Part shown: positions 6,989 through 42,287 of the stretch, piece by piece
Layout of the letters: every line of letters begins with the position of its first letter
Numbering within the stretch: the stretch's first letter is position 1
From: a phage
DNA: 64,000 bases
Sequence record: PZ445134.1
Reading direction: 5' to 3' (one strand)
Program-made: the position numbers and the translations under genes
The notes under the pieces: model-generated
The model's input: only the letters and a program-made list of their open reading frames with translations
Database searches by the model: none
What the model was told of the DNA's origin: nothing

Positions 6989-7037
6989 TTTATTATCCAA
7001 TGAGAGCATTATACTCTGCTCTCAAGAGTTTGTAAAT
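6989..7037 (-). promoter_or_regulatory. early promoter with dyad symmetry (PeSL-like); copy 1 of a 49-bp duplicated cassette
   Basis: minus strand TTTACA -35, 17 bp, TATAAT -10 flanked by inverted arms GAGAGCA/TGCTCTC; near-identical to 38299..38347. Confidence 0.55.
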
Positions 7038-7039
7038 CG

Positions 7040-7252
7040 TTATCCGAACTTTTTAGCGCCTTTCCAGCCTTCGTACATAACTGCACAAGTCAGTAATACA
7101 GCGTGCTGGCATTCTTTGTATTTGTAAATCCAGAACCAGCGTAAAAAGTCTTCATCCTCAACACCGTTGAGTTTCATGTTGGCAAAGAATTCGGCACGTT
7201 CTTCACGAAGTTGCCATGACACAATATTTTCAGGATTCATTTTGTGTTCCAC
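7040..7252 (-). CDS. hypothetical protein
   Basis: 70 aa ORF. Confidence 0.45.
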   Translation of the reverse strand: MEHKMNPENIVSWQLREERAEFFANMKLNGVEDEDFLRWFWIYKYKECQHAVLLTCAVMYEGWKGAKKFG

Positions 7253-7371
7253 GCCCCGTTTTCGTCGATGAACTTAATCCAGTCATTTACAGACCATTTA
7301 GTTGTGTCACCCTTTGGATTAACATTTAAAGTATATAATCCCTGCTTAAAAAGCATTCGTTTGATATTCAT
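7237..7371 (-). CDS. small hypothetical protein
   Basis: track ORF 7237..7464 trimmed to internal Met with SD GAGGAAA; 44 aa. Confidence 0.3.
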   Translation of the reverse strand: MNIKRMLFKQGLYTLNVNPKGDTTKWSVNDWIKFIDENGAWNTK

Positions 7372-7378
7372 AATTTCC

Positions 7379-7672
7379 TCAACTGTAACGATAACATTCG
7401 TTAGCTTTACGTTTGGCTTCAGTATGAGAAGTATTATAATCATAATCTTCTTTACTGTAAACATCTTTTTTCAACTTACGAACTTCTTTGCGGAGTTGTC
7501 GATTCATTTCGTTCTTGACTTCAGAATCAACGCCTTTCATACGTTTCCATTTATCCGAGCGGAAAATGTTTTCAACCATGTCTTTGTGGCTAACACCGTC
7601 AGGAGCTTTACGTTTACCAAAATAGTCGTAATCACGAACTTTCAAATCTTTACGACGATACGTTTTACCCAT
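7379..7672 (-). CDS. hypothetical basic protein
   Basis: track ORF 7379..7699 trimmed to Met at 7672 with SD GAGGT. Confidence 0.4.
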   Translation of the reverse strand: MGKTYRRKDLKVRDYDYFGKRKAPDGVSHKDMVENIFRSDKWKRMKGVDSEVKNEMNRQLRKEVRKLKKDVYSKEDYDYNTSHTEAKRKANECYRYS

Positions 7673-7679
7673 AAGTACC

Positions 7680-8090
7680 TCAGAGGTTGATTGATACAAT
7701 GCGTTTGATAAAATTCACTTCACTTACTGAAAGGTCTTTAAGACCGATTGATTCTAAACGCTGAGTAAGCGTCAACATCGGGATATAGTCCCAATGTGTT
7801 TTAGACGTTTGATAAGTACGGACGCCATTAGCAATTTCAACGTTCAAATCAGAAATGGTAATGAATACCAGACGTTCGTTGTTTACATTAAGAGTTAGAA
7901 CAACTTTCTTCGAATTCAGACTAATCATTTTGTTTTCCTCTATAGTAGATGGTTTAATCTTAACACATCTATTGAGGATGTAAACTGTTTTATGAAAATA
8001 TTTTCGATTTGAGAGGGGCACAAGGAGATAGTGAAGTGAAGATTCCAATTGGATTATATTAGAAATGAGATAAAGAAGACCAGGCGGCAC
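7680..8090 (-). CDS. hypothetical protein
   Basis: 136 aa ORF. Confidence 0.45.
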   Translation of the reverse strand: MPPGLLYLISNIIQLESSLHYLLVPLSNRKYFHKTVYILNRCVKIKPSTIEENKMISLNSKKVVLTLNVNNERLVFITISDLNVEIANGVRTYQTSKTHWDYIPMLTLTQRLESIGLKDLSVSEVNFIKRIVSINL

Positions 8091-8094
8091 CTGG

Positions 8095-8418
8095 TCAATC
8101 TTCTATGATATCAGAGTCATATCCTAATGAAATCAAGGACTTTTTAAACTCTGCAATATTCTTTTGTTTCTTATCATTTAAAAATATGACAGGATAACGA
8201 ATATTAAGTGAAGTGAATCCTGCACGTTTAGCAAGAGATACGATTAAAGGACGGTCATATTCAATCTTACCATTATTAGTGAGGACTTTATAAAATGTAT
8301 AAGGAGCATTGAGCTCCTTTAAAAGTTTTGTAACAGTATAACATCCTGGACAACGTCCTACTTCTTCAGGGATGCCATAGATTTCAATCTTGTTCTTTAA
8401 GTTCGAGTTTTGTTCCAC
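8095..8418 (-). CDS. nrdH: glutaredoxin-like protein NrdH
   Basis: CPGC redox motif in KIEIYGIPEEVGRCPGCYTV; upstream of nrdG/nrdD; start uncertain, GTG at 8416-8418 proposed. Confidence 0.55.
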   Translation of the reverse strand: MEQNSNLKNKIEIYGIPEEVGRCPGCYTVTKLLKELNAPYTFYKVLTNNGKIEYDRPLIVSLAKRAGFTSLNIRYPVIFLNDKKQKNIAEFKKSLISLGYDSDIIED

Positions 8419-8701
8419 GAGAAATAATTCCTTGGTAAGCCCAATAAGGAGGATTAACAGAATCCTCGCCAGAGTTTTCTTCAGGAAAATAAACCTGGAT
8501 AACAAATCCAGATTCATCAAAGGTAAAATAAACTGTAGGTAATTCACCTAACAATTCAGCACGATTATTAATTTCTTCGAGTTCTCGTTCACATCCAGCC
8601 CAAAAACTAGGATTTAAACTACATTCGTAAAAATAATAGTCATTACCGAACATATCAAAACCATTCCAACTCTCAACCACATACCGCTCAAAACTAATCA
8701 T
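8384..8701 (-). CDS. hypothetical protein
   Basis: 105 aa ORF. Confidence 0.45.
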   Translation of the reverse strand: MISFERYVVESWNGFDMFGNDYYFYECSLNPSFWAGCERELEEINNRAELLGELPTVYFTFDESGFVIQVYFPEENSGEDSVNPPYWAYQGIISRGTKLELKEQD

Positions 8702-8703
8702 AA

Positions 8704-8943
8704 TTAAGCCTTTTTATCAAGAACAGAATTCAGTTTATTAGTAATTTTGTCCAAACGTTCATTGAATTCGCTGGAGGATAAACCCTTTTCAGGAGAAATT
8801 AAACTAATCACGAAAAATACAACAGTAAAAGGAATAAGAAAAATAGCTCCAACTGCCATAAACAAAAAGAACGTTACAGTTGTAAGAAAATCAGCTAAAC
8901 CTTTACGAAATTTATACATATTTACCCTTAATTGATTAACCAA
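8704..8943 (-). CDS. small membrane protein
   Basis: 79 aa with hydrophobic segment FLFMAVGAIFLIPFTVVFFVISLI. Confidence 0.45.
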   Translation of the reverse strand: MVNQLRVNMYKFRKGLADFLTTVTFFLFMAVGAIFLIPFTVVFFVISLISPEKGLSSSEFNERLDKITNKLNSVLDKKA

Positions 8944-9033
8944 ACATTGATAAACACTAAACTATATTGCGAATAAAATTCTGGACCAAAACGAAAAATC
9001 ATATCATTTATAGTATCCATAGTGTAATTCAAT

Positions 9034-9504
9034 TTAATCATGTTTCCACACCCCGTCGGTATTTGTCCAAAGTCGCTGATTATCTGATCCTCGCCACAGT
9101 TTTTTGGTCGGAAGATTTTTCTCATACTTCCCATCAATAATAACATCAACATATTTAAGCATTTCTAGTTGTTTAATATCTTCAAACTTATATCCTGTCC
9201 ACAACCAAATGCTTTTATTGGGATAAAGTTTTTTTACTGTTTGAACAATGCAATGAACAACATCTTGGTTATCAGGATAGAGAGGGTCTCCTCCAGTTAT
9301 AGTTAATCCTTCTATATAATCGTTATTCAAACATTCAATTAATTGTTCCAGCGTTTCACCGGTGAATGGGATACCATTTCTAGCGTTCCATGTTGATTTA
9401 TTATAACACCCCTCGCATTTATGCAAACAACCTGTAACGAAAAGAACGACCCTGCAACCGGGGCCATTCACAAAATCGCAAGGATAAAATCTATCATAAT
9501 TCAT
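9034..9504 (-). CDS. nrdG: anaerobic ribonucleotide reductase activating protein NrdG
   Basis: 156 aa; radical-SAM cysteine cluster GCLHKCEGCYN; overlaps nrdD stop. Confidence 0.88.
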   Translation of the reverse strand: MNYDRFYPCDFVNGPGCRVVLFVTGCLHKCEGCYNKSTWNARNGIPFTGETLEQLIECLNNDYIEGLTITGGDPLYPDNQDVVHCIVQTVKKLYPNKSIWLWTGYKFEDIKQLEMLKYVDVIIDGKYEKNLPTKKLWRGSDNQRLWTNTDGVWKHD

Positions 9505-10792
9505 TGGTGTTTAACCCTATGCATGATTTCTTTATTTTTGCCGAGATTAAATCCGCGTTCGTTCGGATTTCCAAGATAACCGCATGTTCTTCTTATTGTG
9601 TTCATCTTTTTAGGATCAGTTTCTCCGCAAACTGAACAAACAAATCCGTTTTCAGTAGGAGTCATTTCATGAGTACTTCCACATGTAAAACATTTATCTA
9701 CTGGCATATTAACACCAAAATAATCTAAATGTTGTGCAGCATAATCCCATACAGCCTCAAGACCTTTTAGGTTATTTTTCATATCAGGAAGTTCAACATA
9801 AGAAATGTGACCACCAGTCGCAATGAAATGATATGGCGCTTCACGAGAAATCTTTTCAAACGGAGTAATATTTTCTTCTACTGAAACGTGGAAACTATTA
9901 GTGTACCAGCCTTTATCAGTAACATCTTTTACACTTCCATATTTTTCGGTATCAAGTTTACAGAAGCGATAGCACAGGTTTTCAGCAGGAGTAGAATACA
10001 AGCTAAAAGCAAAACCGGTTCTTTCAGTCCACTGCTTAAGACGAGCATTCATTTTAGTCAAAATTTCCTGTCCAATATCACGTCCGACAAGAATATTCAA
10101 TTCGTGAATACCAATGTATCCTAAAGACACTGAACTTCTGCCGTTTTTAAATAACTCAATTATATCATCATCAGGTTTAAGACGAACCCCAAATGCACCT
10201 TCTTGGTAAAGAATAGGAGCAACAGTAGCTTTAACTCCTTTTAAGGAACTAATTCTACACATCAAAGCTTCAAAACACAGATCCATTCGTTCATTAAATA
10301 GCTCAACAAATTTCTGTTCATTGAATTGTGTTCCAATATAAGAATCTAACGCAATACGAGGAAGATTCAGTGTTACAACACCAAGATTATTACGCCCATC
10401 AAGAATTTCATTACCAGTCGAATCTTTCCATACGCTCAAAAAACTACGGCAACCCATTGGAGAAACAGGAACAGATGAACCGGTGATAGCTTTATTATTC
10501 TTAACTGAAATAATATCAGGATACATTCTTTTGCTTGCACATTCTAACGCAAGCTGCTTAATATCATAGTTCGGGTCGTCTTTATAAAGATTAACACCCT
10601 CTTCAACGAACATAACAAGTTTAGGGAAAATAGGAGTTATCCCATCGCGACCAAGACCTTTAATACGATTTTTCAGAATTGCTTTCTGAATCATTCGTTC
10701 AGTCCAGTCAGTTCCCGTGCCAAATGTAATGGTTACAAAAGGCGTTTGTCCGTTTGAACTGAAAAGTGTATTTACTTCATCATTATATTCAG
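9501..10792 (-). CDS. nrdD: anaerobic ribonucleoside-triphosphate reductase NrdD, exon 2
   Basis: C-terminal glycyl-radical motif RRTCGYLG and CxxC...CxxC zinc site; 5' boundary is the proposed 3' splice site. Confidence 0.8.
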
Positions 10793-11825
10793 CATGAGTC
10801 GCAAATTCATGCCCGTTTATATGAAACAACAAAATTTGGATAGTCCATAGATATGCAACGTTCTTTTATAGTGCTAGGATGAAAATTTAGCGCTTTAGCT
10901 GCTTCTATATAAGACGTATACTTAATACCGTCAACAACCACATATTCAGGAACTTTATGAATAGTAGTCTTAATACTCAAAACAAGAGGATGAGTTTCGA
11001 CTTCACTTTCAGTGCAATTTAAATATTCCGCTGCTTTTTTAAAACTTCTAAAAGTTTTATTTTTAAGCTTTATCGATACTTGTTTTTTACTTTTTCGACT
11101 ATTGATATTATTTTGCACATGTTCCTTAGATCTTCTGTTTTTAGCATAATATTCAGCCACAGAAGATTTTATATTGTTTTTATGAGATTCGGATAACACT
11201 TTACCCTTATGAGCATCTCTTAATTTTTGAATATGTTCTTCAGTATCCGGATGCTTATAAAACTTTTTACCGCCTATGGATTTATTTAAACATTTTTTGC
11301 TATAAAAATATTTACGTATGACCTCTTCTTCATGTTTTAATGCATCTTTATAACTATCAAATGTTTTTAAAATTATCCATTTAGTAGGTGTATCAGTTTT
11401 TAAGCGTTCATTTATATACTTAGATGACGTTGTGTAAGTTTTCCAGTTTGTGGGCTTGTTTTTAATTGTTCTAAATTTTTTATAACCGATATAAATGTCG
11501 CCATTAGAAAACTTAACTAAGTATGTAAATGCGTCTTTATCTTTTATTTTAGTACAACGTCTTTTTATCCATTTCATTGTTTCACCTCGTATTCATAAGA
11601 TAATCTTATTTATACAAGATGACTGCTGCATGTCGCCATGCAGATTAGACTATATCTTCATCTTTCGATGCCGGCCGTTTCGAATAGCATTAGCTTCTAT
11701 TCTACACCGCTACATTCATCACGGTTAGTCGTTAGGCATTTAGTTCAAAAGAACATTTAGCACGGGATTGTCTACTAGAGAGGTTCCCCGTTTAGACCGG
11801 TTTTACATGAGCCTGAATTAAATTA
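10793..11825 (-). mobile_element. group I intron in nrdD
   Basis: nrdD reading frame interrupted; intron 5' region contains CTAAACGGGGAACCTCTCTAGTAGACAATCCCGTGCTAAAT, which matches the conserved core of T4 td-type group I introns as I recall it; intron begins TAATTTAATTCAGGCTCATG after exon ...TATGAGT; 3' end chosen at a G that restores frame and gives 1033 nt. Confidence 0.7.
10807..11577 (-). CDS. GIY-YIG homing endonuclease (I-TevII-like) inside the nrdD intron
   Basis: 256 aa; N-terminal YLVKFSNGDIYIGY (GIY..YIG), downstream conserved Glu/Asn, C-terminal NUMOD-like helix-turn-helix; strong SD GAGGTGA before ATG. Confidence 0.75.
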   Translation of the reverse strand: MKWIKRRCTKIKDKDAFTYLVKFSNGDIYIGYKKFRTIKNKPTNWKTYTTSSKYINERLKTDTPTKWIILKTFDSYKDALKHEEEVIRKYFYSKKCLNKSIGGKKFYKHPDTEEHIQKLRDAHKGKVLSESHKNNIKSSVAEYYAKNRRSKEHVQNNINSRKSKKQVSIKLKNKTFRSFKKAAEYLNCTESEVETHPLVLSIKTTIHKVPEYVVVDGIKYTSYIEAAKALNFHPSTIKERCISMDYPNFVVSYKRA

Positions 11826-12363
11826 ACTCATACGCCTGGAATGCATCATATACGTCTTTTTCTGTTTTAGATTGGGCATAATTCAACGCATCAGCGATTT
11901 GCCATTTTTCTGCATCCTCAATATGTTTTGCATAGGTGCGTTTAACATAAGGAGAAAGTACTTTGTCTACATTAGCAAAAGTCGTTCCGCCGTATTGATG
12001 GGAAGCAACCTGTGCGGTAATTTGTGCCATAATTGCAGTAGCAACACCAATCGATTTAGGCGTTTCAATTTGAGCATTGCCTAATTTAAATCCATTCTCA
12101 AGCATCCCCTTTAAATCGACTAAACAGCAATTAGTAAACGGAAGAGCAGGAGAATAATCAATATCATGCATGTGAATGATTCCGCTTTCATGCGCATGCA
12201 TAATAAAAGACGGGACCATATTTTTGGCAATGTGCTTAGACACAATACCAGCCATAAGGTCCCGTTGAGTTGGAAAAACACGAGAATCTTTATTAGCATT
12301 CTCGTTCAAAAGATCTTTATTAGTTTTATGAATTAATCCTTCAATTTCTTTTTCAATTTTCAT
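11826..12363 (-). CDS. nrdD: anaerobic ribonucleoside-triphosphate reductase NrdD, exon 1
   Basis: N-terminal 179 aa of NrdD; in-frame TAA 7 nt into the intron. Confidence 0.8.
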
Positions 12364-12833: not shown

Positions 12834-12838
12834 GATAA

Positions 12839-12871
12839 ACCCTTACCTTAAATAGATAAGGGTATTTATTA
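12839..12871 (-). promoter_or_regulatory. late-promoter-like TAATAAATA plus SD-sequestering hairpin upstream of gene 49
   Basis: minus strand TAATAAATA, then ACCCTTA-(11 nt loop)-TAAGGGT whose 3' arm is the SD, then ATG. Confidence 0.45.
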
Positions 12872-15851: not shown

Positions 15852-15874
15852 AATATTTTCCTCTCGTTAAGATA

Positions 15875-15912
15875 GATTCATTATACTCCAACCGTCCTTG
15901 GTTGTAAACTGA
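15875..15912 (-). promoter_or_regulatory. early promoter (PeSL-like)
   Basis: minus strand GTTTAC -35, spacer containing CCAAGGACGGTTGG, TATAAT -10. Confidence 0.5.
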
Positions 15913-16846: not shown

Positions 16847-16869
16847 TTTATATTCCTCGTGTTGAAAAA

Positions 16870-16913
16870 TTTATTATACTCCAACCATCCTTGGTTGTAC
16901 ATCATTCCTTAAG
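16870..16913 (-). promoter_or_regulatory. early promoter (PeSL-like), near-copy of 15875..15912
   Basis: ttattatactccaaccatccttggttgtacat shares about 30 nt with the 15875 cassette. Confidence 0.5.
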
Positions 16914-18487: not shown

Positions 18488-18504
18488 GTTTTACCTCCAG
18501 TAGT

Positions 18505-18545
18505 TGATAGGTCTATAATAACATAACCATAGACCTTGTAAACAA
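18505..18545 (-). promoter_or_regulatory. early promoter with dyad symmetry (PeSL-like)
   Basis: minus strand GTTTAC, 17 bp, TATTAT; inverted arms AGGTCTAT/ATAGACCT. Confidence 0.55.
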
Positions 18546-19973: not shown

Positions 19974-19984
19974 TTCGTTTCGAT

Positions 19985-20020
19985 AGGTTTATAATAACAT
20001 GTTTAAAGCAAAAGTAAACA
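19985..20020 (-). promoter_or_regulatory. early promoter
   Basis: minus strand GTTTAC, 17 bp spacer, TATTAT. Confidence 0.5.
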
Positions 20021-20240: not shown

Positions 20241-20261
20241 TTTGTTCTCCTCTTGTTTTGA

Positions 20262-20298
20262 TAGGTCTATAATAACATATCCTAAAAGTATGTACACT
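20262..20298 (-). promoter_or_regulatory. early promoter
   Basis: minus strand GTGTAC -35 variant, 18 bp, TATTAT. Confidence 0.4.
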
Positions 20299-22632: not shown

Positions 22633-22654
22633 TTTGTTCTCCATTTGTTTTGGT

Positions 22655-22692
22655 AGGACTATGTTATAGTAGTCCTACCAAGACGTAAACTA
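22655..22692 (-). promoter_or_regulatory. early promoter with dyad symmetry (PeSL-like)
   Basis: minus strand GTTTAC; inverted arms GGTAGGACTA/TAGTCCTACC spanning the -10. Confidence 0.5.
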
Positions 22693-23083: not shown

Positions 23084-23104
23084 AACGTTCTCCTCTAGTA
23101 AGTA

Positions 23105-23140
23105 AGGTCTACTATAACACAACCTGAGGAGAAGTAAACT
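23105..23140 (-). promoter_or_regulatory. early promoter (PeSL-like)
   Basis: minus strand GTTTAC, 17 bp, TATAGT; inverted CTCCTC/GAGGAG arms. Confidence 0.5.
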
Positions 23141-23177: not shown

Positions 23178-23182
23178 TTTGA

Positions 23183-23740
23183 TTAGTTTTTGTAATATCG
23201 TAAAGGGTTGATATGGAATGAAAGCATTGCGCGTGGAATAGGACGACTCAAAAGACTCTTAAGTTTCCAACCACAGTAAACACGCAGATAAAATGTAATA
23301 CCACCAACCTTAAGATAAGGTATAGCAGCGAATAATCCCCATGCCGACTCGTTCCAAACTAAAAGATATCCATGATGTGCCGGATCAGGAGATCCAGATT
23401 TAGTTTCGGCGTTGCCTTTATAGTGCCATTCTGATGAAGCTTCGCGACCTAAAACATGATACGAAAAATTATATGCTTTGTTGCGCCATAGCCAAGCTAC
23501 GCGTTGAGCATATTTACCTATAACAGGAATTTTACGTATTTTAGACCAACGTTCAACATGGCCGCGGTCACCATCGATAGGATTATCGTAAGTCATCATC
23601 CAGTCAAAGCCATAAGGTAGTTTACCGGTTTTTTCACTATGGAATGGAACTACAAATGGTGCTAGAATAATTGCTAAAATCGCTGCGATCCAATCTATAG
23701 GAACAAGAACAACCCAACTTATGTATTTTAAAAATTTCAT
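23183..23740 (-). CDS. membrane protein, unknown function
   Basis: 185 aa; N-terminal hydrophobic helix WVVLVPIDWIAAILAIILAPFVV; gene bracketed by identical terminator copies. Confidence 0.5.
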   Translation of the reverse strand: MKFLKYISWVVLVPIDWIAAILAIILAPFVVPFHSEKTGKLPYGFDWMMTYDNPIDGDRGHVERWSKIRKIPVIGKYAQRVAWLWRNKAYNFSYHVLGREASSEWHYKGNAETKSGSPDPAHHGYLLVWNESAWGLFAAIPYLKVGGITFYLRVYCGWKLKSLLSRPIPRAMLSFHINPLRYYKN

Positions 23741-23772
23741 ATATCCTCTCTTAGTTTACAAGGATATTTATA

Positions 23773-23800
23773 CAAAAAGCCCCAACCTTTCGGAAGGGGC
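23773..23800 (-). terminator. rho-independent terminator (copy 2 of 3 identical)
   Basis: same 27-nt element aaaaagccccaacctttcggaaggggc; after rI stop. Confidence 0.65.
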
Positions 23801-27531: not shown

Positions 27532-27549
27532 TTTGATTTCTCCTCTAGT

Positions 27550-27588
27550 TGACAGGTCTATAGTAACACAACTAGAGGAGAAGTAAAC
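27550..27588 (-). promoter_or_regulatory. early promoter with dyad symmetry (PeSL-like)
   Basis: minus strand GTTTAC, 17 bp, TACTAT; 10-bp arms CCTCTAGTTG/CAACTAGAGG. Confidence 0.5.
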
Positions 27589-30003: not shown

Positions 30004-30077
30004 TTTGTTCTCTCTAAATTTGGGCCATGGAATGGCCCATGAATTGTCCATTTCTGTATTTACCACTCCAAGTAATT

Positions 30078-30115
30078 ATGAATATACTATCACAATTTTA
30101 GGAGAAAGTAAACTG
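30078..30115 (-). promoter_or_regulatory. early promoter
   Basis: minus strand GTTTAC, about 18 bp, TAGTAT; 5' UTR would include hairpin GGGCCAT-TCC-ATGGCCC at 30022-30038. Confidence 0.4.
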
Positions 30116-30418: not shown

Positions 30419-30439
30419 TTTTGTTTCCTTGTTTGTTTT

Positions 30440-30480
30440 GATAGAGTAATTATACCATATTAATACTTAAGCGTAAACTG
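30440..30480 (-). promoter_or_regulatory. early promoter
   Basis: minus strand GTTTAC -35 and TATAAT-like -10. Confidence 0.45.
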
Positions 30481-31162: not shown

Positions 31163-31184
31163 AATTTCCTCCAAGTAGTTGATG

Positions 31185-31220
31185 AATGTATAGTATCAAA
31201 GTCCTTGGAGGAAGTAAACA
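31185..31220 (-). promoter_or_regulatory. early promoter
   Basis: minus strand GTTTAC -35; TACTAT/TATACA -10 region. Confidence 0.45.
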
Positions 31221-34187: not shown

Positions 34188-34199
34188 AATATTCTCCTC

Positions 34200-34247
34200 A
34201 TGTTTTAATAGGACTACTATAACATAGTCCTATCATGTTGTAAACAG
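34200..34247 (-). promoter_or_regulatory. early promoter with dyad symmetry (PeSL-like)
   Basis: minus strand GTTTAC, 17-18 bp, TATAGT; arms ATAGGACTA/TAGTCCTAT. Confidence 0.55.
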
Positions 34248-35494: not shown

Positions 35495-35504
35495 TTAATT
35501 TGAT

Positions 35505-35542
35505 AGGACTACTATAACATAGCCCTATCTTGTTGTAAACTG
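35505..35542 (-). promoter_or_regulatory. early promoter with dyad symmetry (PeSL-like)
   Basis: minus strand GTTTAC; arms TAGGACTA/TAGCCCTA around -10. Confidence 0.5.
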
Positions 35543-36024: not shown

Positions 36025-36033
36025 AATGATTCC

Positions 36034-36339: not shown

Positions 36340-36695
36340 TTTCTACATTCCTTAATAAAGTTTTCTATTGTTTCATTTTCACGTCTAGCTAGGAGTTCAT
36401 TATAACTAATCATTTGAGAAGCGTAAACCTTTTTATTTTTCTTGTTATGGCTTATAAAATCGTAGTAAAAATAGACTACAGTACAAAATGACGCGATGGA
36501 TGCAAAGGCTTGGGTATACCGTAAGTCCTGCCATTGGTCTGTGAATCCACCAGTGTTCCCTATAAATCCTAATACAACGCCGTCAATAAGAAATCCAACT
36601 AATCCAAAGGCAAATCCCATGCTAATACTCATAATAAAAATTAGAATGTTCTCGCCAAGAGAAGGCCATACGGTTAAGAGTTGAGGCTTTTGCAT
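36336..36695 (-). CDS. membrane protein
   Basis: 119 aa with 2-3 hydrophobic helices. Confidence 0.45.
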   Translation of the reverse strand: MQKPQLLTVWPSLGENILIFIMSISMGFAFGLVGFLIDGVVLGFIGNTGGFTDQWQDLRYTQAFASIASFCTVVYFYYDFISHNKKNKKVYASQMISYNELLARRENETIENFIKECRK

Positions 36696-37099
36696 CTTAT
36701 TTCCTTAACGAATTCCATAGCTTCTTCATATTCATACTTTTTAACAGCTTCATCATACTGAGCTTGGGCTTTTGCGCACTGATCTTTCCATTCTCTTAAT
36801 CGGGCTCTGTGATGACGGCCTTGGTACCAATATCCTACCCAATTAATAGGCATTAATAAAAACGGTACAATAAGTGGTGCGACGAACATTAATGAAAATG
36901 CTGCATCAGACGATATAACTTCACTAGAATCTAAAACAGCTCCTATAATCATAAAGATTAAAAATGCTAAAGCTAAAATAGGGCCAAATAGTACTTCATT
37001 TGGGATTAATTTACGCTTGTATTCATACGCCCAGGGCTTAATTGGCATGTATAGGGTTGGCTTTGACATATTCTCTACATTCCATAATAAATTGCTCAA
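36674..37099 (-). CDS. membrane protein
   Basis: 141 aa with hydrophobic helices. Confidence 0.45.
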   Translation of the reverse strand: MSNLLWNVENMSKPTLYMPIKPWAYEYKRKLIPNEVLFGPILALAFLIFMIIGAVLDSSEVISSDAAFSLMFVAPLIVPFLLMPINWVGYWYQGRHHRARLREWKDQCAKAQAQYDEAVKKYEYEEAMEFVKEIRCKSLNS

Positions 37100-37655
37100 G
37101 GATTAAATTGTTAGTGAAATTAGGACTAACAACCATGGTTTCATAAAGCGCATCAATAGCACTTAAAGCATCAACTCTTTTAAGCAAAGGCTTACCTTCA
37201 TACATAGTTTCAGAATCGACGATTAACGTAAAGTAATATTTTTTATTATTGACCAGAACTTCTGTATCAATATAAAACATGTTAGATCTTAAAAGCTTGT
37301 CTCTAAAACCATAATAATCTTCAGAGCGTTCGCTGATATATTCCCATTCAGTGTTTAAACAACAAACAGACCATGTAGGAGCAACGAAATCAGTGAATCT
37401 AATATCATGGTCTGCAACTAGTTTAGCAATAGCTCCGATATCATGAATCATAATACCTGGGGCCAATAAAGATTTTCGGTTATTTGCATATTCAGTTGTC
37501 TCATAAGAAGACGACCAGTACCATTTACGTCCAGTTGCAACATATCGTAATGAATCAACTAAAGACGTAGGTGGATTTACCTTATTTCGGAACTCTTCGA
37601 ACATTGAGTCAATATCATTATTTTGGTTTCGCATGTTAACTCCTTTATTATCCAA
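37038..37655 (-). CDS. hypothetical protein
   Basis: 205 aa ORF; start uncertain. Confidence 0.45.
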   Translation of the reverse strand: MDNKGVNMRNQNNDIDSMFEEFRNKVNPPTSLVDSLRYVATGRKWYWSSSYETTEYANNRKSLLAPGIMIHDIGAIAKLVADHDIRFTDFVAPTWSVCCLNTEWEYISERSEDYYGFRDKLLRSNMFYIDTEVLVNNKKYYFTLIVDSETMYEGKPLLKRVDALSAIDALYETMVVSPNFTNNLILEQFIMECREYVKANPIHAN

Positions 37656-37683
37656 AAGGAGGACCGGAGTCCTCCGTATTATT

Positions 37684-38292
37684 TTATTTCAAAGAGTTAA
37701 TATATTCTTGTACATCAGCAGAAGTGGTTTCGACACCAGCTGGAGTGCCATTGAACGTTTCAACACGAGTCAGAGTGTCTTCGATATCAACCTTAGTCAG
37801 TGCAGCGATTTCAATTACATCATCAGCCGTAGAGATACCAAGGGCATTGGCTGCTCGAGTTTCACGAATGTATTCGAGTTTGATTGCCAGATTCTGACGA
37901 GCATCGTCAAGTTCAACCACCTTACGAGCAATTTCAATTCGCATAGCGGCATACCCGTCGGCTTTTGTATTAAGTTGTTCGGCAGTTCGACGATACAGAA
38001 GACCAAGCTTAGCATGCATGGTAACATCTTGTCCTTCAGCCAGGAGCTTACGAATTTCACGTTCCTTAGAAGCGGCTTGCTTGTTCTTTTCATTAACAAG
38101 TTCGCGAATACGTTTTTCTTCATTAATAGATTTAACCGAAGCCGTTTTTAGTTCTTTGATTTGGGTAATCAACTTATCTGCAGCTGCGTTATACTGTTCT
38201 TCGACAGTCAGATTTTTAGCCATAGCAGTACCCAGTTTAGTGCGGATGAATTCAACAAGTTTCTTCAGTGTGTTCATATTATTACCTTTCAA
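37684..38292 (-). CDS. coiled-coil protein, possibly PspA/IM30-like
   Basis: 202 aa almost entirely predicted helical/charged; PspA similarity is impressionistic. Confidence 0.4.
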
Positions 38293-38298
38293 TTGGTG

Positions 38299-38347
38299 GT
38301 TTATTATCCAACGAGAGCATTATACTCTGCTCTCAAGAGTTTGTAAA
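38299..38347 (-). promoter_or_regulatory. early promoter with dyad symmetry; copy 2 of the 49-bp duplicated cassette
   Basis: tttattatccaacgagagcattatactctgctctcaagagtttgtaaat differs by 1 nt from 6989..7037. Confidence 0.55.
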
Positions 38348-38575
38348 TTATTTTTTAATCAAATTGACATAAAACTCGGCATCTTCCGGGTGCATGCCTT
38401 CACAGTATTCTTCAACCATGAACTTCTTAACGGCTTCATAAGGACCACTCAGATTAAGCTCAGTTGTCCAGAACTTGGAATCTTGGACTGAATCGATACG
38501 AACTTCAGGGTGACGGTTGCGAATAACTTCTTCGGTGTATTCATAATCAACGACATCAATACTAACTGTAGCCAT
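38348..38575 (-). CDS. hypothetical protein
   Basis: 75 aa ORF. Confidence 0.45.
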   Translation of the reverse strand: MATVSIDVVDYEYTEEVIRNRHPEVRIDSVQDSKFWTTELNLSGPYEAVKKFMVEEYCEGMHPEDAEFYVNLIKK

Positions 38576-38584
38576 TTTGTTTTC

Positions 38585-38632
38585 CTCTTGATTTGATGTG
38601 ATTACTATAACATAAACTTACTTAGATGTAAA
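38585..38632 (-). promoter_or_regulatory. early promoter
   Basis: minus strand ATTTAC -35 variant and TTATAGT -10. Confidence 0.4.
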
Positions 38633-38786
38633 TTATTTCAACGTCACCTTTAGCTGCTTTATAACCTTCAGCCCAAGATACAACAGAGTTTTTATCTGAG
38701 GATTCAAATTCAGGCATTGGACTTTCACCAATATTCACACAGTATGTTTCTTCATTTTCATCGAACCAAATAATTAAAGTAGTCAT
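38622..38786 (-). CDS. small hypothetical protein (54 aa)
   Basis: hand-translated MTTLIIWFDENEETYCVNIGESPMPEF...; SD GAGGAG. Confidence 0.3.
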   Translation of the reverse strand: MTTLIIWFDENEETYCVNIGESPMPEFESSDKNSVVSWAEGYKAAKGDVEIIYI

Positions 38787-38809
38787 TTTGTTTACTCCTC
38801 TGTAGTTGA

Positions 38810-38848
38810 TAAGTCTATAGTATCACCGTCCTTGGTGCTTGTACATCA
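38810..38848 (-). promoter_or_regulatory. early promoter
   Basis: minus strand ATGTAC -35 variant, TACTATAG -10, CCAAGGACGG element in spacer. Confidence 0.4.
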
Positions 38849-38855
38849 TTATTTT

Positions 38856-39188
38856 TTAATTTTTCCAACTTAACAACTTGTAGTGTCCTTCATTAATACG
38901 TGGTTTATCCCAAGAAATACTAATATATGATTCACTGTCAATAGAAGTCGCCGGGTTTTTCTCTACCGTAAGACCTTCACTTTCCAGCCATTCAATAGTA
39001 TTTGCGCATAAATCAGAAGAACACCTCATCGGAAACCGGCAAGATTTTTCACCTTTAGCTGCAGTGTTATACATCTTTTCTAAAATACGCTTTTGCACGT
39101 TTTTAAAAATAGTTTCAGCAGATTCTTCAGATTTTTTATTCAGTTCAGTATAAAGACTCATAACATTCTTCTCATTAATAGGGCTCAT
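38856..39188 (-). CDS. hypothetical protein
   Basis: 110 aa ORF. Confidence 0.45.
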   Translation of the reverse strand: MSPINEKNVMSLYTELNKKSEESAETIFKNVQKRILEKMYNTAAKGEKSCRFPMRCSSDLCANTIEWLESEGLTVEKNPATSIDSESYISISWDKPRINEGHYKLLSWKN

Positions 39189-39218
39189 AATATCTCAATC
39201 ATAAGCACATGTAAACAA

Positions 39219-39494
39219 TTATTTCATATTATTGAAATAATCTTCAGCGATTTCGTCATTATCATGGTAAACTTTGGTAGACGATTTGGCGTAACCTTCA
39301 GCTGAGAACATATTAATCACAACCTTTATAGTATACCACTGTCCGTCTTCGTTACCCATTACTGCGTAAGTTTCAAACATCGGATGGTCAGGTCCAATAA
39401 CTTTAATATCATTCACCGTACGTCCGAAATCTTCTGGAACGCATTTCATAAAGAAGTTGAACATTTCGCCGTAATTATCCATTTCATTCTCCAA
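39219..39494 (-). CDS. hypothetical protein
   Basis: 91 aa ORF. Confidence 0.45.
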   Translation of the reverse strand: MENEMDNYGEMFNFFMKCVPEDFGRTVNDIKVIGPDHPMFETYAVMGNEDGQWYTIKVVINMFSAEGYAKSSTKVYHDNDEIAEDYFNNMK

Positions 39495-39517
39495 GTTTTT
39501 TCTGTATCGGTAGTTGA

Positions 39518-39556
39518 TAGTTGTATAGTACCACGGAAGAACAGGGATGTAAACAG
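39518..39556 (-). promoter_or_regulatory. early promoter
   Basis: minus strand GTTTAC, 17 bp, TACTAT. Confidence 0.5.
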
Positions 39557-39677
39557 TTTTGTGAAAAAATTTTTAAAAGTTTTTTTGGGAATTCTAGGGC
39601 AAGGAGAGGCAATTAAAGGATAGGATATTGTATTATAAAGGGAAGAAACTAAATGATGCCTAGAGAGGTCCAGAAAG

Positions 39678-39705
39678 GCCTAGATACTAAAAAGCCCCAA
39701 CCTTT
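39678..39705 (-). terminator. rho-independent terminator (copy 3 of 3 identical), downstream of tRNA region
   Basis: same 27-nt element aaaaagccccaacctttcggaaggggc. Confidence 0.65.
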
Positions 39706-39766
39706 CGGAAGGGGCTAAGCCTTGCGGCAACCTTGTCGGGGTTCCACCTACTAGGTAAGTGTTTGT

Positions 39767-39858
39767 ACGAAACGCCGGGATTCGAACCCGGTTATTAAGC
39801 AGTTGACGCTACTCAATATTTTTAAAAGGCCGTATCTCGGCCATATCCGAACGTTCCG
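39767..39858 (-). ncRNA. tRNA-like element (T-arm plus acceptor-like stem), possible small stable RNA
   Basis: minus strand CCGGG-TTCGAAT-CCCGG T-arm followed by CGTTTCG, which pairs with CGGAACG 85 nt upstream; no clean cloverleaf found by hand; no CCA. Confidence 0.3.
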
Positions 39859-40097
39859 TCAAAAACGCTACTCGGCTTACGGCAAAGATATTTCCTCGAA
39901 TCGATAATTCTGTGCGCCGTTTCTGCTGTGATGTAAGGGGATATTAACAAATCGTAAAGATTTATTAAGACCAGTCCTTACGCAGGGAACATCAGTCCGA
40001 CGACTTACCGGTAGCGACCCGGTTTCTTGTTTGGTGCGCCGGTGAATGCTGGTAATCAGTCTTCATACGACGGCTTGACTATATAATAGTCTTCATT

Positions 40098-40172
40098 TGG
40101 TATCCCGCCCTGGGATCGAACCAGGACCGCAAACTTAGAAGGATCGTATGCTATCCATTACACCAGCGGGAT
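40098..40172 (-). tRNA. tRNA-Arg (anticodon TCT)
   Basis: hand-folded cloverleaf: acceptor ATCCCGC/GCGGGAT, D-loop AATGGATA, anticodon loop CTTCTAA, T-arm CCTGG-TTCGATC-CCAGG, encoded CCA. Confidence 0.7.
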
Positions 40173-40177
40173 GTAGT

Positions 40178-40254
40178 TGGTGACCCCGACCAGATTTGAA
40201 CTGGTAACCTTTCCCTTATGAGGGGACTGCTGCTAACCATTGAGCTACAGGGCC
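40178..40254 (-). tRNA. tRNA with anticodon CAT (Met or Ile2-type), atypical D-arm
   Basis: acceptor GGCCCTG/CGGGGTC with two G-U pairs, anticodon loop CTCATAA, T-arm ACCAG-TTCAAAT-CTGGT, encoded CCA; D-stem pairs poorly. Confidence 0.5.
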
Positions 40255-40316
40255 TAAATAACTTTCTATTATGAAAGGCACTTTAGAGCACCTTTGGTAA
40301 TAGAGGGTATGAATTA

Positions 40317-40343
40317 ATAATAACACATAATTCTTAAAGCAAA
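40317..40343 (-). promoter_or_regulatory. candidate MotA-dependent middle promoter for the tRNA cluster
   Basis: minus strand TTTGCTTTA MotA box, 12 nt, TATTAT; about 55 nt upstream of tRNA at 40254. Confidence 0.4.
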
Positions 40344-40350
40344 TTACGTT

Positions 40351-40641
40351 TTACCGTACCATATTAATGTAATTATATTCAATGCAACGTAATTTCAAAG
40401 GATTCTTGAAAATATCATATTCAAGAGGGCCTTTTTCTGTTTCAATAAAGAAATCAAAGTTAACTGTGTTAAATTTATCATCTTCATAGAGTAATTTAAC
40501 CTGTGAAGACGAACGGTCGATGTAAACCTTTTCAACTTCAAAATTAGTCAAAATACCATAGTCATCGACTAGTGCTTTAGCTGCACGTTGATCACTTTCG
40601 TATCCATTCTCGACAGATTTTACTTTAGCATAAAGAATCAT
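40351..40641 (-). CDS. hypothetical protein
   Basis: 96 aa ORF. Confidence 0.45.
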   Translation of the reverse strand: MILYAKVKSVENGYESDQRAAKALVDDYGILTNFEVEKVYIDRSSSQVKLLYEDDKFNTVNFDFFIETEKGPLEYDIFKNPLKLRCIEYNYINMVR

Positions 40642-40997
40642 GAGTGTTCCACCACTTCAAAAGTATGTGCACTGACAATCTGGTACCAGTCAAAATTTTC
40701 TTCAGCATTTTTGTAGATTTCACGAAGAGCTTCAACAGTTTTTCCTGTAGCAACAAGATCGTCAATACCGCCAAGAGGATAACAGTCACCAGCAAACAGA
40801 AGGAAATTAATAGTTTCTGTAGGTTCTGGATGCAGAACACCGTTATCGTCTACCACTTCAAAGAAAGTGTAAGAAGGAGTACAAGTTTTAATCCAAGCCC
40901 ACGCTTGAGCCGCTGAATCAAATGGTCTGCGTATCAAACGACAATCAGGGTCTTTAGAAGGATTTGCTTCAAAATCCGCATATACATGATATTTCAT
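40638..40997 (-). CDS. hypothetical protein
   Basis: 119 aa ORF. Confidence 0.45.
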   Translation of the reverse strand: MKYHVYADFEANPSKDPDCRLIRRPFDSAAQAWAWIKTCTPSYTFFEVVDDNGVLHPEPTETINFLLFAGDCYPLGGIDDLVATGKTVEALREIYKNAEENFDWYQIVSAHTFEVVEHS

Positions 40998-41183
40998 TTA
41001 CTCACCTTTTGCAATTTTATCCATAACGATAGCGATTAAGCCTATTAGAAATGCTACTACCAACGAGATAGAATTTTCTGTTGTTGTCAGTAGTCCACAA
41101 ATGAATCCTACAAACATCGAAAAACTAAAAGCCATTGAAGCAATTACTACAGCAACATTACGAATCAGTTCAGCGCGTTTCAT
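40998..41183 (-). CDS. small membrane protein
   Basis: 61 aa, one hydrophobic helix. Confidence 0.4.
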   Translation of the reverse strand: MKRAELIRNVAVVIASMAFSFSMFVGFICGLLTTTENSISLVVAFLIGLIAIVMDKIAKGE

Positions 41184-41204
41184 TTTATTCTCCTCAGTAG
41201 TTGA

Positions 41205-41243
41205 TAGGGTAATAGTATCACTACCCTATATAAAAGTAAACGG
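41205..41243 (-). promoter_or_regulatory. early promoter with dyad symmetry (PeSL-like)
   Basis: minus strand GTTTAC; arms TAGGGTA/TACCCTA. Confidence 0.5.
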
Positions 41244-41252
41244 TTTTATAAA

Positions 41253-41561
41253 CTATTTTATTCCGCGTGATGCAATCGTATTCTGCCGTTTAACGCCAGT
41301 TTGTTTAAAGTTATGATTGTCGAGTTGATCGGTGCGAGCAACTCCGAATGATGATTTAATCTTAGCTTTAGATCCTTTAGTTATAGAAATAAACATCTCG
41401 GGAGCCCCTTTCTTAAAGTCCGAAGCAATTACTTCAACACCGTTCTTAGCAAGTGACTTCATAATTGCTTCCGCATACTCATCATCAAGACCCGCTTGAG
41501 TATGAATAACGAATGTCTTTGGTGCAGCCGCTTCATTGATAAATTCTTTAAATGTTTTCAT
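41253..41561 (-). CDS. internal-protein-like protein with CTS
   Basis: starts MKTFKEFINE. Confidence 0.6.
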   Translation of the reverse strand: MKTFKEFINEAAAPKTFVIHTQAGLDDEYAEAIMKSLAKNGVEVIASDFKKGAPEMFISITKGSKAKIKSSFGVARTDQLDNHNFKQTGVKRQNTIASRGIK

Positions 41562-41587
41562 TTTATTTTCCTAATTAATTTTGATGA

Positions 41588-41623
41588 GATAATAGTACCA
41601 CTACCCTATCTAAAAGTAAACTC
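41588..41623 (-). promoter_or_regulatory. early promoter
   Basis: minus strand GTTTAC and TACTAT. Confidence 0.45.
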
Positions 41624-41894
41624 ATTTTAAATAAATTGCGTATTTTTTATAGCCACCAGGCTCGTGTCGAAGACCCCTATCATTAGCAAAACGCTCAATG
41701 TTGTTAATTTGATTCTGGTCAAGTTCAGAGATGTCAAACACGAAATAGTTACGTTTGTTACCAACTGTTACATAGTCAGTTAAATCAATACCATATAGGT
41801 AATTGATGTCAGCAATCATAGTCTTGACAGCTTTGCTAATTTTTACTTTTTCGTTAAAAGTAGCTTCATTGATAAATTCTTTAAATGTTTTCAT
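41622..41894 (-). CDS. internal-protein-like protein with CTS
   Basis: starts MKTFKEFINE. Confidence 0.6.
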   Translation of the reverse strand: MKTFKEFINEATFNEKVKISKAVKTMIADINYLYGIDLTDYVTVGNKRNYFVFDISELDQNQINNIERFANDRGLRHEPGGYKKYAIYLK

Positions 41895-41919
41895 TTTATT
41901 TTCTTAATTAATTTTGATA

Positions 41920-41957
41920 GGACCTACTATAACATAGTCCTATCAACATGTAAACTA
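41920..41957 (-). promoter_or_regulatory. early promoter with dyad symmetry (PeSL-like)
   Basis: minus strand GTTTAC; arms TAGGACTA/TAGTCCTA. Confidence 0.5.
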
Positions 41958-42221
41958 TTAAATACCTGCTTCGCGCTTAACATAAGCAACATAAGCTTCG
42001 ATAGCTTTCTTGCTGGTAATTTTTACCTGACCGCGTCCGTTGCCTTCTTTAGAGTTTTTCTTAACAACTACATTACCATCTTTAACACCCCATACATGGA
42101 CATAAGTACCGATGTTTCGGTCGTAGAACATTGCATGGTCGTTGTTGTAAGAGAATGATTCGTAGTTCTCTGTCAGAGTAGAAGATTGAGATTCAGCGAT
42201 AAATTCTTTATACGTTTTCAT
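41958..42221 (-). CDS. internal-protein-like protein with CTS (IPI position)
   Basis: starts MKTYKEFIAE; located beside 57B where T4 has ipI. Confidence 0.6.
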   Translation of the reverse strand: MKTYKEFIAESQSSTLTENYESFSYNNDHAMFYDRNIGTYVHVWGVKDGNVVVKKNSKEGNGRGQVKITSKKAIEAYVAYVKREAGI

Positions 42222-42249
42222 TTTATTTCCTTGAGGTCGTTTATTTGAT

Positions 42250-42287
42250 AGGATGATAGTAACACACCATCATCCTTATGTAAACTG
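42250..42287 (-). promoter_or_regulatory. early promoter with dyad symmetry (PeSL-like)
   Basis: minus strand GTTTAC, 17 bp, TACTAT; arms GGATGAT/ATCATCC. Confidence 0.5.

Follow-up and report, generated by a model that had tools for sequence, protein, structure and literature searches.

Early promoters with hairpins built from their spacers in an RB69-like T-even phage

The subject of this analysis is a family of early promoters in the window, a stretch of 64,000 nucleotides of phage DNA (sequence record PZ445134.1), in which inverted repeats are built into the promoters themselves. What looks like a single kind of dyad is two devices: in the first (class A) a local hairpin closes around the -10 element, and in the second (class B) a segment complementary to the Shine-Dalgarno sequence (SD), an anti-SD, pairs with the SD of the gene downstream. 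The arms are under selection for pairing, and class B pairing is conserved at particular genes, where it is predicted to occlude the ribosome-binding site (RBS). Overall, the elements are probably best explained as early promoters with spacer-built hairpins that act in RNA reading through from upstream, class B occluding the RBS. Action at the level of RNA is argued for well by class B and is hinted at by class A. The elements are of a known kind, T-even early promoters of the promoter-early stem-loop (PeSL) type, found here in a new RB69-like genome.

Early promoters of the window

The window comes from an RB69-like T-even phage (Mosigvirus); by megablast, most of it matches RB69, Shf125875, NHEP29 and others at about 95-97% identity. 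The stretch from 7 to 42 kb is the minus-strand early region, with 55.x, nrdD, 49, nrdC.x, tk, vs, regB, denV, e, e.x, tRNA, ip and 57B. The window was scanned for GTTTAC (with up to 1-2 mismatches), a spacer of 16-19 nt and TAnnnT. The scan gave 23 intergenic sites on the minus strand between 7037 and 42285, each with an SD and an ATG about 30-45 nt downstream (all within 75 nt), and the genes include orthologues of early genes such as regB, denV, e.6, nrdC.x and 55.2. This agrees with the first-pass annotation, which had proposed about 23 such sites with GTTTAC, 17-18 bp and a TATAAT-like -10. The consensus is an A-rich segment, GTTTAC(a), TGn (in 17 of the 23 sites), TAtwAT and then aaaCCTATCAAA. 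The counts by position are G19 T23 T21 T23 A23 C23 at the -35 and T23 A23 ... T23 at the -10, and the 12 nt upstream of the sites are 45% A.

The T4-type early promoter has been described as 'UP/-35/TGn/-10' (Hinton 2010, PMC2988021), and a C-rich segment at -3..-1, also present in the window sites, is recorded for the early promoters of RB69 (Nolan et al. 2006, PMC1524935). The window sites share with the promoters of these two phages the GTTTAC -35, the 17-18 nt spacer, TGn, TAtaaT, the A-rich upstream segment and this C-rich segment, as well as their position before early-gene orthologues and their orientation along early transcription. There is no essential difference at the level of the promoter. 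Dyads are not discussed in the papers on T4 and RB69 early promoters (PMC2988021, PMC1524935).

A stem-agnostic detector, which ignores the spacer and the discriminator and requires an SD, an ATG and an open reading frame (ORF), was run on the window and 126 related loci (2.6 Mb). It found 833 sites (619 of them unique) on the early-sense strand and none on the antisense strand. In RB69, 16 of the 18 sites found by the detector coincide exactly with early promoters predicted by Nolan et al. 2006 (PMC1524935). The strand count and this coincidence establish that the promoter family is real and that it is already catalogued. T4 regB has a typical early promoter according to the literature (PMC3014915), and the sole site of this type upstream of T4 regB is the orthologue of window site 27588. 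Judged by their sequence, the window sites appear to be sigma-70 early promoters, a type used by the host RNA polymerase straight after infection, and each of them would drive the gene directly downstream from a predicted start site.

Four look-alike sites are found inside ORFs, with the first base of the -35 at 36428, 14929, 13545 and 7462 on the minus strand. They have a perfect or near-perfect consensus and are conserved in relatives, and the RB69 orthologue of 36428 is on the published list with a low score (Pe:70143). These sites may act as promoters within genes, or they may be fortuitous matches that coding constraint has preserved.

Pairing between the arms

A strong stem encloses the -10 in nine of the 23 sites, which are named here by the first base of the -35 (42285, 41955, 41241, 38348, 35540, 34245, 22690, 18543 and 7037). 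At four others (31219, 27588, 23139 and 7985) the downstream SD forms the 3' arm. The stem is weak or internal to the spacer in five (41621, 39216, 30113, 15909 and 16902) and absent from five (39554, 38633, 30478, 20297 and 20019). The first-pass statement that most sites carry an inverted repeat spanning the -10 is therefore roughly right, given 13 strong and 5 weak stems, although five of the 23 sites have no stem and four of the strong stems are in fact SD pairing. The six arm pairs that it quoted are all present, at 18543, 34245, 42285, 41241, 7037/38348 and 27588. An Rfam scan of 6500-43000 detected no known RNA family at the cassettes and reported two tRNAs only; these two genes, at 40101..40254 on the minus strand, are located where RB69 annotates tRNA-Arg(UCU) and tRNA-Met(CAU).

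The arms differ from copy to copy and stay complementary, which had been read from the outset as selection on structure. Permutations, chimeras and compensatory changes between orthologues support this reading, and the pairing exceeds what would be expected by chance from AT-rich sequence. Over the 23 window sites the mean folding energy is -8.0 kcal/mol with a site's own arms and -4.8 kcal/mol with swapped arms (z of about -6; none of 20,000 permutations was as good). Individual stems have z values of -3 to -7 against dinucleotide shuffles, 23139 being weaker. Among 503 unique sites an ungapped helix score of at least 8 is reached by 41% of the real sites, compared to 6% of shuffles and 11% of arm-swapped chimeras. 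A census of pairs in the outer flanks gave no signal and matched the expectation from composition.

The dyads might instead be a by-product of conserved flanking motifs (ATAGG...CCTAT, CTCC...GGAG) and of copying and pasting a few ancestral cassettes, with no selection on pairing. The dominant subfamily, GATAGGACTATGTTATAGTAGTCCTATCAAAA, does recur in Mosigvirus genomes, the segment CCTATCAA after the -10 is itself conserved, and any CTCC pairs with any GGAG. However, chimeras made within a class between independent clusters have helix scores of 6.0-6.4 compared to 9.0-9.2 for real sites, so that the sharing of ATAGG/CCTAT or CTCC/GGAG fails to explain the pairing. Furthermore, there are 54 distinct 5' arms in class A and 40 in class B, and the arms of the denV and regB promoters are wholly different between divergent phages, yet always pair.

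Orthologous sites also show compensatory double changes. The arms of the 55.2 cassette read GAGAGC...GCTCTC in the window and NHEP29, and GAGAGA...TCTCTC in RB69 and Shf125875; an outer T-A pair has become C-G in RB69, and mar005P1 has a mismatch intermediate. In the mobD.2 cassette (22690), comparison of T4-like with RB69-like phages yields a consensus helix of 13 bp, in which three pairs are doubly compensated and several G:U intermediates occur. Taken with the chimera scores, these changes leave an origin without selection on pairing hardly credible.

Two classes of stem

The helices that bridge the -10 split into two groups of 115 and 121 among the 619 unique sites, and a helix with a score of at least 7 is absent from 282. 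In class A, the spacer holds the 5' arm, and the 3' arm extends from the last base of the -10 to about +1 to +9. The most frequent loop has 8 nt, TGnTATAa, and the median stem has 10 bp and about -14 kcal/mol. In class B, the 5' arm, at -18..-5 relative to the -10, is again part of the spacer and begins right behind the -35, as in GTTTAC followed by TTCTCCTC. Its 3' arm is downstream of the predicted +1 and overlaps the SD zone in 56 of 68 sites; the loops are 14-50 nt. The site at 18543 (nrdC.8) is class A in the window and class B in T4 and other orthologues.

The position of the hairpins inside the promoters can be understood from the way the genes are packed. The stop codon of the upstream gene precedes the first base of the -35 by a median of 5 nt, which means that the promoter and its leader of about 25 nt constitute the whole untranslated intergenic space. 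Variation within the cassette is left to the 17-18 nt spacer and the discriminator/leader alone, and an intercistronic RNA hairpin must therefore span the -10. This explains the fixed register of the stems without any role at the DNA level: the spacer and the discriminator/leader would have become pairing partners. From the cassette's own promoter, transcription would begin about 7 nt past the -10, either between the arms or within them, so that the hairpin should form only in RNA that reads through from upstream promoters.

A function in DNA, an option already raised in the first-pass annotation, was considered as well, in which the dyad extrudes as a cruciform or hairpin, or alters the duplex at the -10, and thereby tunes the open complex or provides a recombination target. 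The commonest register, which puts the -10 precisely in the loop with 8 nt between the arms, and the intense recombination of T-even DNA are in line with such a function. However, the register has the simpler explanation given above, and 282 of the 619 unique sites (45%) are stemless and orthologues gain, lose or switch class, so that the stem is unnecessary for promoter function. Class B pairing has its centre at the SD, with 14-50 nt between the arms. Cruciforms with spacers of 8 nt or more extrude poorly and would be substrates of phage endonuclease VII. Mismatches inside the helices also lean towards G:T on the sense strand, and a function in DNA is altogether very unlikely.

After de-replication there are 29 G:T and 13 A:C mismatches on the sense strand (p=0.02), with 15 and 6 in class A alone (p=0.08). 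Chance helices in chimeras have 66 G:T and 116 A:C, and their mismatches are mostly of the transversion type. The raw counts of 41 and 14 were set aside because orthologous copies had inflated them; successive de-replications gave 18/11, 25/12 and 29/13. The excess of G:T is a modest signal for selection on the sense RNA.

The hairpin promoters of the N4 virion RNA polymerase, and single-stranded DNA promoters, likewise have an inverted repeat at the promoter. In N4 the stems are of 5-7 bp, the 3-nt loops are conserved, and a phage polymerase recognises the element in its form as a DNA hairpin. An analogy with them was rejected, since the window loops are 8-50 nt long, the sequences vary, and the promoters are of the ordinary sigma-70 type.

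The 23 cassettes of the window, all on the minus strand, are as follows (MFE, minimum free energy; aa, amino acids; 5' arm before 3' arm).

42222..42285 (-), before an 87-aa ORF unmatched in RB69/T4; -35 at 42285..42280, -10 at 42261..42256; class A, AGGATGAT(GGT)/(ACT)ATCATCCT; MFE -15.4, z -4.5
41895..41955 (-), before a 90-aa ORF with an internal-protein-like leader; -35 at 41955..41950, -10 at 41931..41926; class A, TTGATAGGAC/GTCCTATCAA; MFE -14.6, z -4.0
41562..41621 (-), before an RB69ORF156c-like ORF; -35 at 41621..41616, -10 at 41597..41592; degenerate class A; MFE -7.3
41184..41241 (-), before tRNA.4; -35 at 41241..41236, -10 at 41217..41212; class A, ATAGGGTA/TACCCTAT; z -3.3
39483..39554 (-), before e.8; -35 at 39554..39549, -10 at 39530..39525; no significant stem
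39162..39216 (-), before the RB69ORF146c orthologue; -35 at 39216..39211, -10 at 39192..39187; weak stem with G:U pairs; MFE -8.6
38576..38633 (-), before frd.3; -35 ATTTAC at 38633..38628, -10 at 38609..38604; no stem in the window phage
38278..38348 (-), before e.6, with copy 2 of the twin cassette (38348..38300); -35 ATTTAC at 38348..38343, -10 at 38324..38319; class A, GAGAGCA/TGCTCTC (38334..38328 / 38319..38313); z -4.9
35495..35540 (-), before the RB69ORF135c orthologue; -35 at 35540..35535, -10 at 35516..35511; class A, GATAGGGCTA/TAGTCCTATC with one G:U; MFE -16.0, z -5.6
34188..34245 (-), before the RB69ORF133c orthologue; -35 at 34245..34240, -10 at 34221..34216; class A, ATAGGACTA/TAGTCCTAT; z -5.5
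31163..31219 (-), before denV; -35 at 31219..31214, -10 at 31195..31190; class B, anti-SD TTCCTCCAAG (31213..31204) with SD region CTTGGAGGAA (31175..31166); MFE -17.8, z -5.9
30419..30478 (-), before an ipII-like ORF; -35 at 30478..30473, -10 at 30454..30449; no significant stem
30052..30113 (-), before the RB69ORF123c orthologue; -35 at 30113..30108, -10 TAGTAT at 30089..30084; weak or mixed stem, AATTGTGA/TCATAATT plus CTCC:GGAG
27532..27588 (-), before regB; -35 at 27588..27583, -10 at 27565..27560; class B, anti-SD TTCTCCTCTAGTTG (27582..27569) with CAACTAGAGGAGAA (27551..27538); MFE -21.6, z -4.7
23084..23139 (-), before mobD.2a; -35 at 23139..23134, -10 at 23116..23111; class B, TTCTCCTC with GAGGAGAA; z only -1.5; a canonical terminator-like GGGGC-T6 just upstream
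22645..22690 (-), before a small mobD.2-like ORF; -35 at 22690..22685, -10 TAACAT at 22666..22661; longest class A stem, CTTGGTAGGACTA/TAGTCCTACCAAG-type, 12-15 bp; MFE -19.6, z -7.3
20241..20297 (-), before the RB69ORF102c orthologue; -35 GTGTAC at 20297..20292, -10 at 20274..20269; no significant stem
19974..20019 (-), before nrdC.10; -35 at 20019..20014, -10 at 19996..19991; no stem
18488..18543 (-), before nrdC.8; -35 at 18543..18538, -10 at 18520..18515; class A, AGGTCTAT/ATAGACCT; z -4.5
16847..16902 (-), before nrdC.5; weak -35 ATGTAC at 16902..16897, -10 at 16878..16873; short dyad CAACCA/TGGTTG within the spacer
15852..15909 (-), before nrdC.3; -35 at 15909..15904, -10 at 15885..15880; short dyad CAACC/GGTTG within the spacer
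7929..7985 (-), before an 82-aa ORF (RB69ORF079c-like); -35 at 7985..7980, -10 TAAGAT at 7962..7957; class B, TCCTCAATAG with CTATAGAGGA; z -3.1
6971..7037 (-), before 55.2, with copy 1 of the twin cassette (7037..6989); -35 ATTTAC at 7037..7032, -10 at 7013..7008; class A, TGAGAGCA/TGCTCTCA (7024..7017 / 7008..7001); z -4.2

Class B and the ribosome-binding site

The accessibility of the RBS was calculated from the partition function as the mean unpaired probability over -14..+3, with the +1 of the own transcript assumed to be the 7th nt after the -10. For class B, the predicted value is 0.62 for the promoter's own transcript, falls to 0.34 in read-through RNA and is 0.48 for chimeras, the read-through value being below that of the chimera in 40 of 52 clusters (p=2.6e-6). 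Occlusion is specific to certain genes. It is predicted for all 20 distinct regB sequences (10 clusters), where accessibility decreases from 0.67 to 0.24, and for 26 of the 29 distinct denV sequences (16 clusters), where it decreases from 0.62 to 0.29. Among other genes it is found in 8 of 10 nrdC.8 sequences, in 1 of 12 for e.6, and in 0 of 10 and 0 of 6 for nrdC.10 and ORF133c, respectively. The denV gene of the window itself has a predicted accessibility of 0.71 in its own transcript and 0.31 in read-through RNA. The denV arm pairs in different phages include TTCCTCCAAG/CTTGGAGGAA, ATCTCCTGTAG/CTACAGGAGA, ATCTCCGTTTG/CAAACGGAGAT and ATGATGTCTTCC/GGAGGACATCAT. The early promoters of regB, denV and nrdC.8 in T4 (62797, 65413 and 53943) have the same anti-SD:SD architecture, with predicted accessibilities of 0.73, 0.70 and 0.79 in the own transcripts and 0.17, 0.44 and 0.36 in read-through RNA.

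For regB, denV, mobD.2a and the ORF079c-like gene, the anti-SD after the -35 would thus pair with the SD in read-through RNA, silencing translation from it and also shielding its GGAG. The transcript from the own promoter, which would lack the anti-SD, could be translated. Expression of these genes would be tied to the brief activity of their own early promoter, because the promoter inside the hairpin is an early and not a late one. RegB is stated to need tight control (PMC3014915), with which the class B prediction is consistent, and RNA structure is known to protect GGAG from RegB (a T4 review).

A similar gate is known in T4. The long transcripts of e, soc, 49 and I-TevI sequester the SD/AUG in a helix, and a promoter inside the hairpin gives a translatable RNA (Uzan & Miller 2010, PMC3014915). 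Class B shares this geometry, with an own transcript that would be devoid of the 5' arm and, by prediction, an SD paired in read-through RNA. However, the T4 genes use late promoters (gp55, TATAAATA), which delay expression until the late period, whereas class B has an early sigma-70 promoter with the 5' arm in its spacer. The class B elements would work like this gate without being strict members of the group, as they have GTTTAC/TATAAT in place of a late promoter. No description of an early-promoter anti-SD version was found in the PeSL papers or the T4 reviews, the older subscription literature being outside that search.

Class A and the fate of the transcript

In class A, the stem would close around TGn and the -10, locking the spacer and the discriminator in a local hairpin and leaving the downstream RBS open. 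The predicted RBS accessibility is 0.61 in read-through RNA and 0.67 in the own transcript, compared to 0.51 both in chimeras and at stem-less promoters, and the read-through value exceeds that of the chimera in 48 of 61 clusters (p=1.8e-6). These model values suggest that class A stems sequester promoter-derived sequence that would otherwise interfere with the RBS.

In the classical PeSL reading, the stem-loops terminate or attenuate upstream transcription, and the cassette is mainly a portable regulatory module and a recombination site. A PeSL stem-loop of RB49/phi1 cut lacZ expression like a strong terminator (PMC2839356), and the copying of cassettes between unrelated genes and the enrichment of breakpoints in them, described below, suit this reading too. 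However, the stems do not look like intrinsic terminators. Among 76 class A stems, not one has a T-rich tail behind it (the composition there is 56% A and 15% T), and a terminator scanner called none of the stems. TransTerm places no terminator within an early-promoter (Pe) interval of RB69 and about eight just upstream of promoters, whereas in RB43 and RB49 many terminators fall within Pe intervals. From their sequence, class A stems do not appear to be canonical terminators, although a hairpin without a U-tract could still cause pausing or attenuation. The class B loops of 14-50 nt that end on the SD fit translational control and not termination, and homologous recombination accounts for similarity between cassettes but not for compensatory changes within them. 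On balance the classical reading is unlikely to be the explanation for the window elements.

A perfect bidirectional terminator-like hairpin, GGAGGACTCCGGTCCTCC, is found at 37658..37675 between e.5 and e.6. It corresponds to the RB69 TransTerm terminator 'e.5<--e.6'.

Class A stems could alternatively act on the fate of the mRNA by protecting the 3' end of the upstream cistron after cleavage in the A-rich leader, or by defining processing sites, which would give each cistron its own stability. The hairpins are local and stable (median about -14 kcal/mol), a single-stranded tail rich in A comes after them, and they are positioned exactly between cistrons with the downstream RBS open. T4 mRNAs are processed by RNase E, and the fragments upstream of the cuts are degraded by 3'-5' exonucleases (PMC3014915). 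We regard such a role as improbable as the principal explanation; it would be compatible with hairpins acting in read-through RNA and would not exclude them.

The spacer-built hairpins may, tentatively, be brought under one idea, which is nevertheless somewhat less probable than not. T-even phages might use the free spacer as a switch, set gene by gene, for translatability from read-through transcripts. One setting would be the anti-SD, as in regB, denV and nrdC.8, kept across deeply divergent phages despite complete turnover of the arms; the other would be the self-contained -10 hairpin that keeps the RBS open. Such a scheme of insulating translation, embedded in the early promoters of the whole genome, is absent from the PeSL papers and the T4 reviews consulted, and may be present in older literature outside that search.

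Exchange of cassettes

One cassette of 49 bp is present twice, 31 kb apart, with one A/G mismatch. Copy 1 is at 7037..6989, upstream of 55.2, and copy 2 at 38348..38300, upstream of e.6. The first-pass annotation was right about the single mismatch; its title called the duplication exact, which is incorrect, and its second interval was off by one. Both copies are found at the same two loci in RB69, NHEP29, Shf125875 and mar005P1. The e.6 copy is invariant in these four relatives, whereas their 55.2 copy has diverged and has GTATAC at the -35. Compared with the relatives, the 55.2 copy of the window is identical to the e.6 copy, including the ATTTAC -35, apart from the one mismatch over 49 bp. 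The homology to the relatives ends exactly at the -35 of the 7037 cassette, and about 290 nt of their sequence is missing from the window. The junction at the -35 and the e.6-like 55.2 copy point to conversion or recombination at the cassette.

The two further near-copies proposed from the sequence (15875..15912 and 16870..16913) are likewise genuine. The cassettes at 15909 and 16902 are identical in 29 of 31 nt, which cover the promoter core only, and their flanking genes are unrelated. A tandem gene duplication as the source of this pair was rejected because the downstream proteins are unrelated.

At 41241, 41621 and 38633 the cassette differs between close relatives with the coding sequence kept, and the 41241 cassette has been replaced in RB69, NHEP29 and mar005P1. 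When the window is compared with the four relatives, 10 of 42 distinct breakpoints of indels and replacements fall inside cassettes, which make up 4.8% of the region. The comparison of cassette boundaries with breakpoints thus gives an enrichment, with an intergenic bias. Independently of the stems, the conserved promoter cores would serve as short repeats through which recombination or conversion could swap cassettes and genes, as in the PeSL model; the copying of cassettes is independent of the genes, which that model proposes too.

Three further segments differ between the window and some or all of the four relatives. At 10780..11828, in the nrdD region, about 1047 nt without a counterpart in RB69, NHEP29, Shf125875 and mar005P1 carry an ORF of 256 aa on the minus strand (10807..11577). 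The nrdD gene is annotated as split in relatives such as SQ17, where a GIY-YIG homing endonuclease is annotated too, and the Rfam gathering scan reported no group I intron at 10780..11828. At 23178..23773, about 594 nt with an ORF of 185 aa (23183..23740) are present in NHEP29 and absent from RB69, Shf125875 and mar005P1. The left breakpoint of this segment is 34 nt from the 23139 cassette, beside the canonical terminator. The internal-protein (ip) locus (41189..42192) has undergone replacement with respect to all four relatives. Its ORFs at 41958..42221 (87 aa) and 41622..41894 (90 aa) are unmatched in the regions of RB69 and T4 compared, and each follows a cassette whose leader, aaattaattaRgaaaataaaATGaaaac, is nearly the same in both; this suggests that ip genes are swapped cassette by cassette.

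Points against action in read-through RNA

Several points weigh against the explanation by hairpins acting in read-through RNA. Promoter activity and the position of +1 in the window phage are deduced from sequence. The accessibility values are thermodynamic predictions that ignore co-transcriptional folding, and the model also leaves out of account the ribosomes that terminate 5 nt upstream of the -35, by which the 5' arm would be opened transiently. RNAalifold found no structure in the alignment of regB promoters; this null is attributed to shifts in arm register, since MAFFT cannot hold the arms aligned across indels, and the regB and denV comparisons were made with alignment-free accessibility calculations in its place. 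The difference between sense and antisense folding energies, tried as a test of selection on RNA, was asymmetric for class A in 51 of 61 clusters, but was discarded as a loop artefact because the asymmetry remained after the stems had been made perfect and hence comes from the conserved TGn/-10 loop. The excess of G:U is modest, and part of it could come from a C-to-T mutational bias of the sense strand, where a GC skew is present.

For class A, the RBS-preserving effect (0.61 vs 0.51) depends on the chimera null. Candidate further roles of these stems are those of an intercistronic insulator, a 3'-end stabiliser or an attenuator. Finally, the enrichment of breakpoints has a confounder: indels that are tolerated have to end between genes, and most intergenic space is filled by cassettes.

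Relation to PeSL cassettes and significance

The PeSL cassettes of RB49/phi1, T4/PST and KVP40/nt-1 (Arbiol 2010, PMC2839356; Comeau 2014, PMC4122927) share with the window elements the composite of early promoter, stem-loop and SD/ATG in hyperplastic regions, ahead of ORFs that are small or novel. Their stem may overlap the -10 or lie in the stretch that separates the -35 from the -10, near-identical copies occur, and they are associated with indels and replacements, as in the window, which has 23 cassette copies in 35 kb of the nrdC-tk-e-tRNA-ip region. The likeness to PeSL cassettes noted at first reading is apt in view of the composite structure, the near-identical copies before unrelated genes and the breakpoint enrichment. 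There are differences, however. The RB49/phi1 stems have a G-run and a C-run and are terminator-like, whereas those of the window are AT-rich, lack a U-tract and are not predicted terminators. The PST/T4 stem-loops are drawn just upstream of the promoter, whereas the window stems cross the -10. A further trait ascribed to PeSL cassettes is that recombination between them gives encapsidated mini-circles. Pairing with the SD and translation are not mentioned in the PeSL papers (PMC2839356, PMC4122927).

The promoters are textbook T-even biology, and cassettes of promoter and stem-loop have been described since 2010. What is added here is that the stems are under selection for pairing and fall into two classes, one of which has a proposed and testable role, that of occluding the RBS in read-through RNA of early genes whose products are toxic or dose-sensitive, such as the RegB RNase and endonuclease V. 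If the proposed action is correct, it would explain how translation is controlled gene by gene in a densely packed polycistronic early region, how some GGAG sites are shielded from RegB, and what makes it possible to swap promoter cassettes as expression modules complete in themselves. Design rules for insulated expression cassettes would also follow from it.

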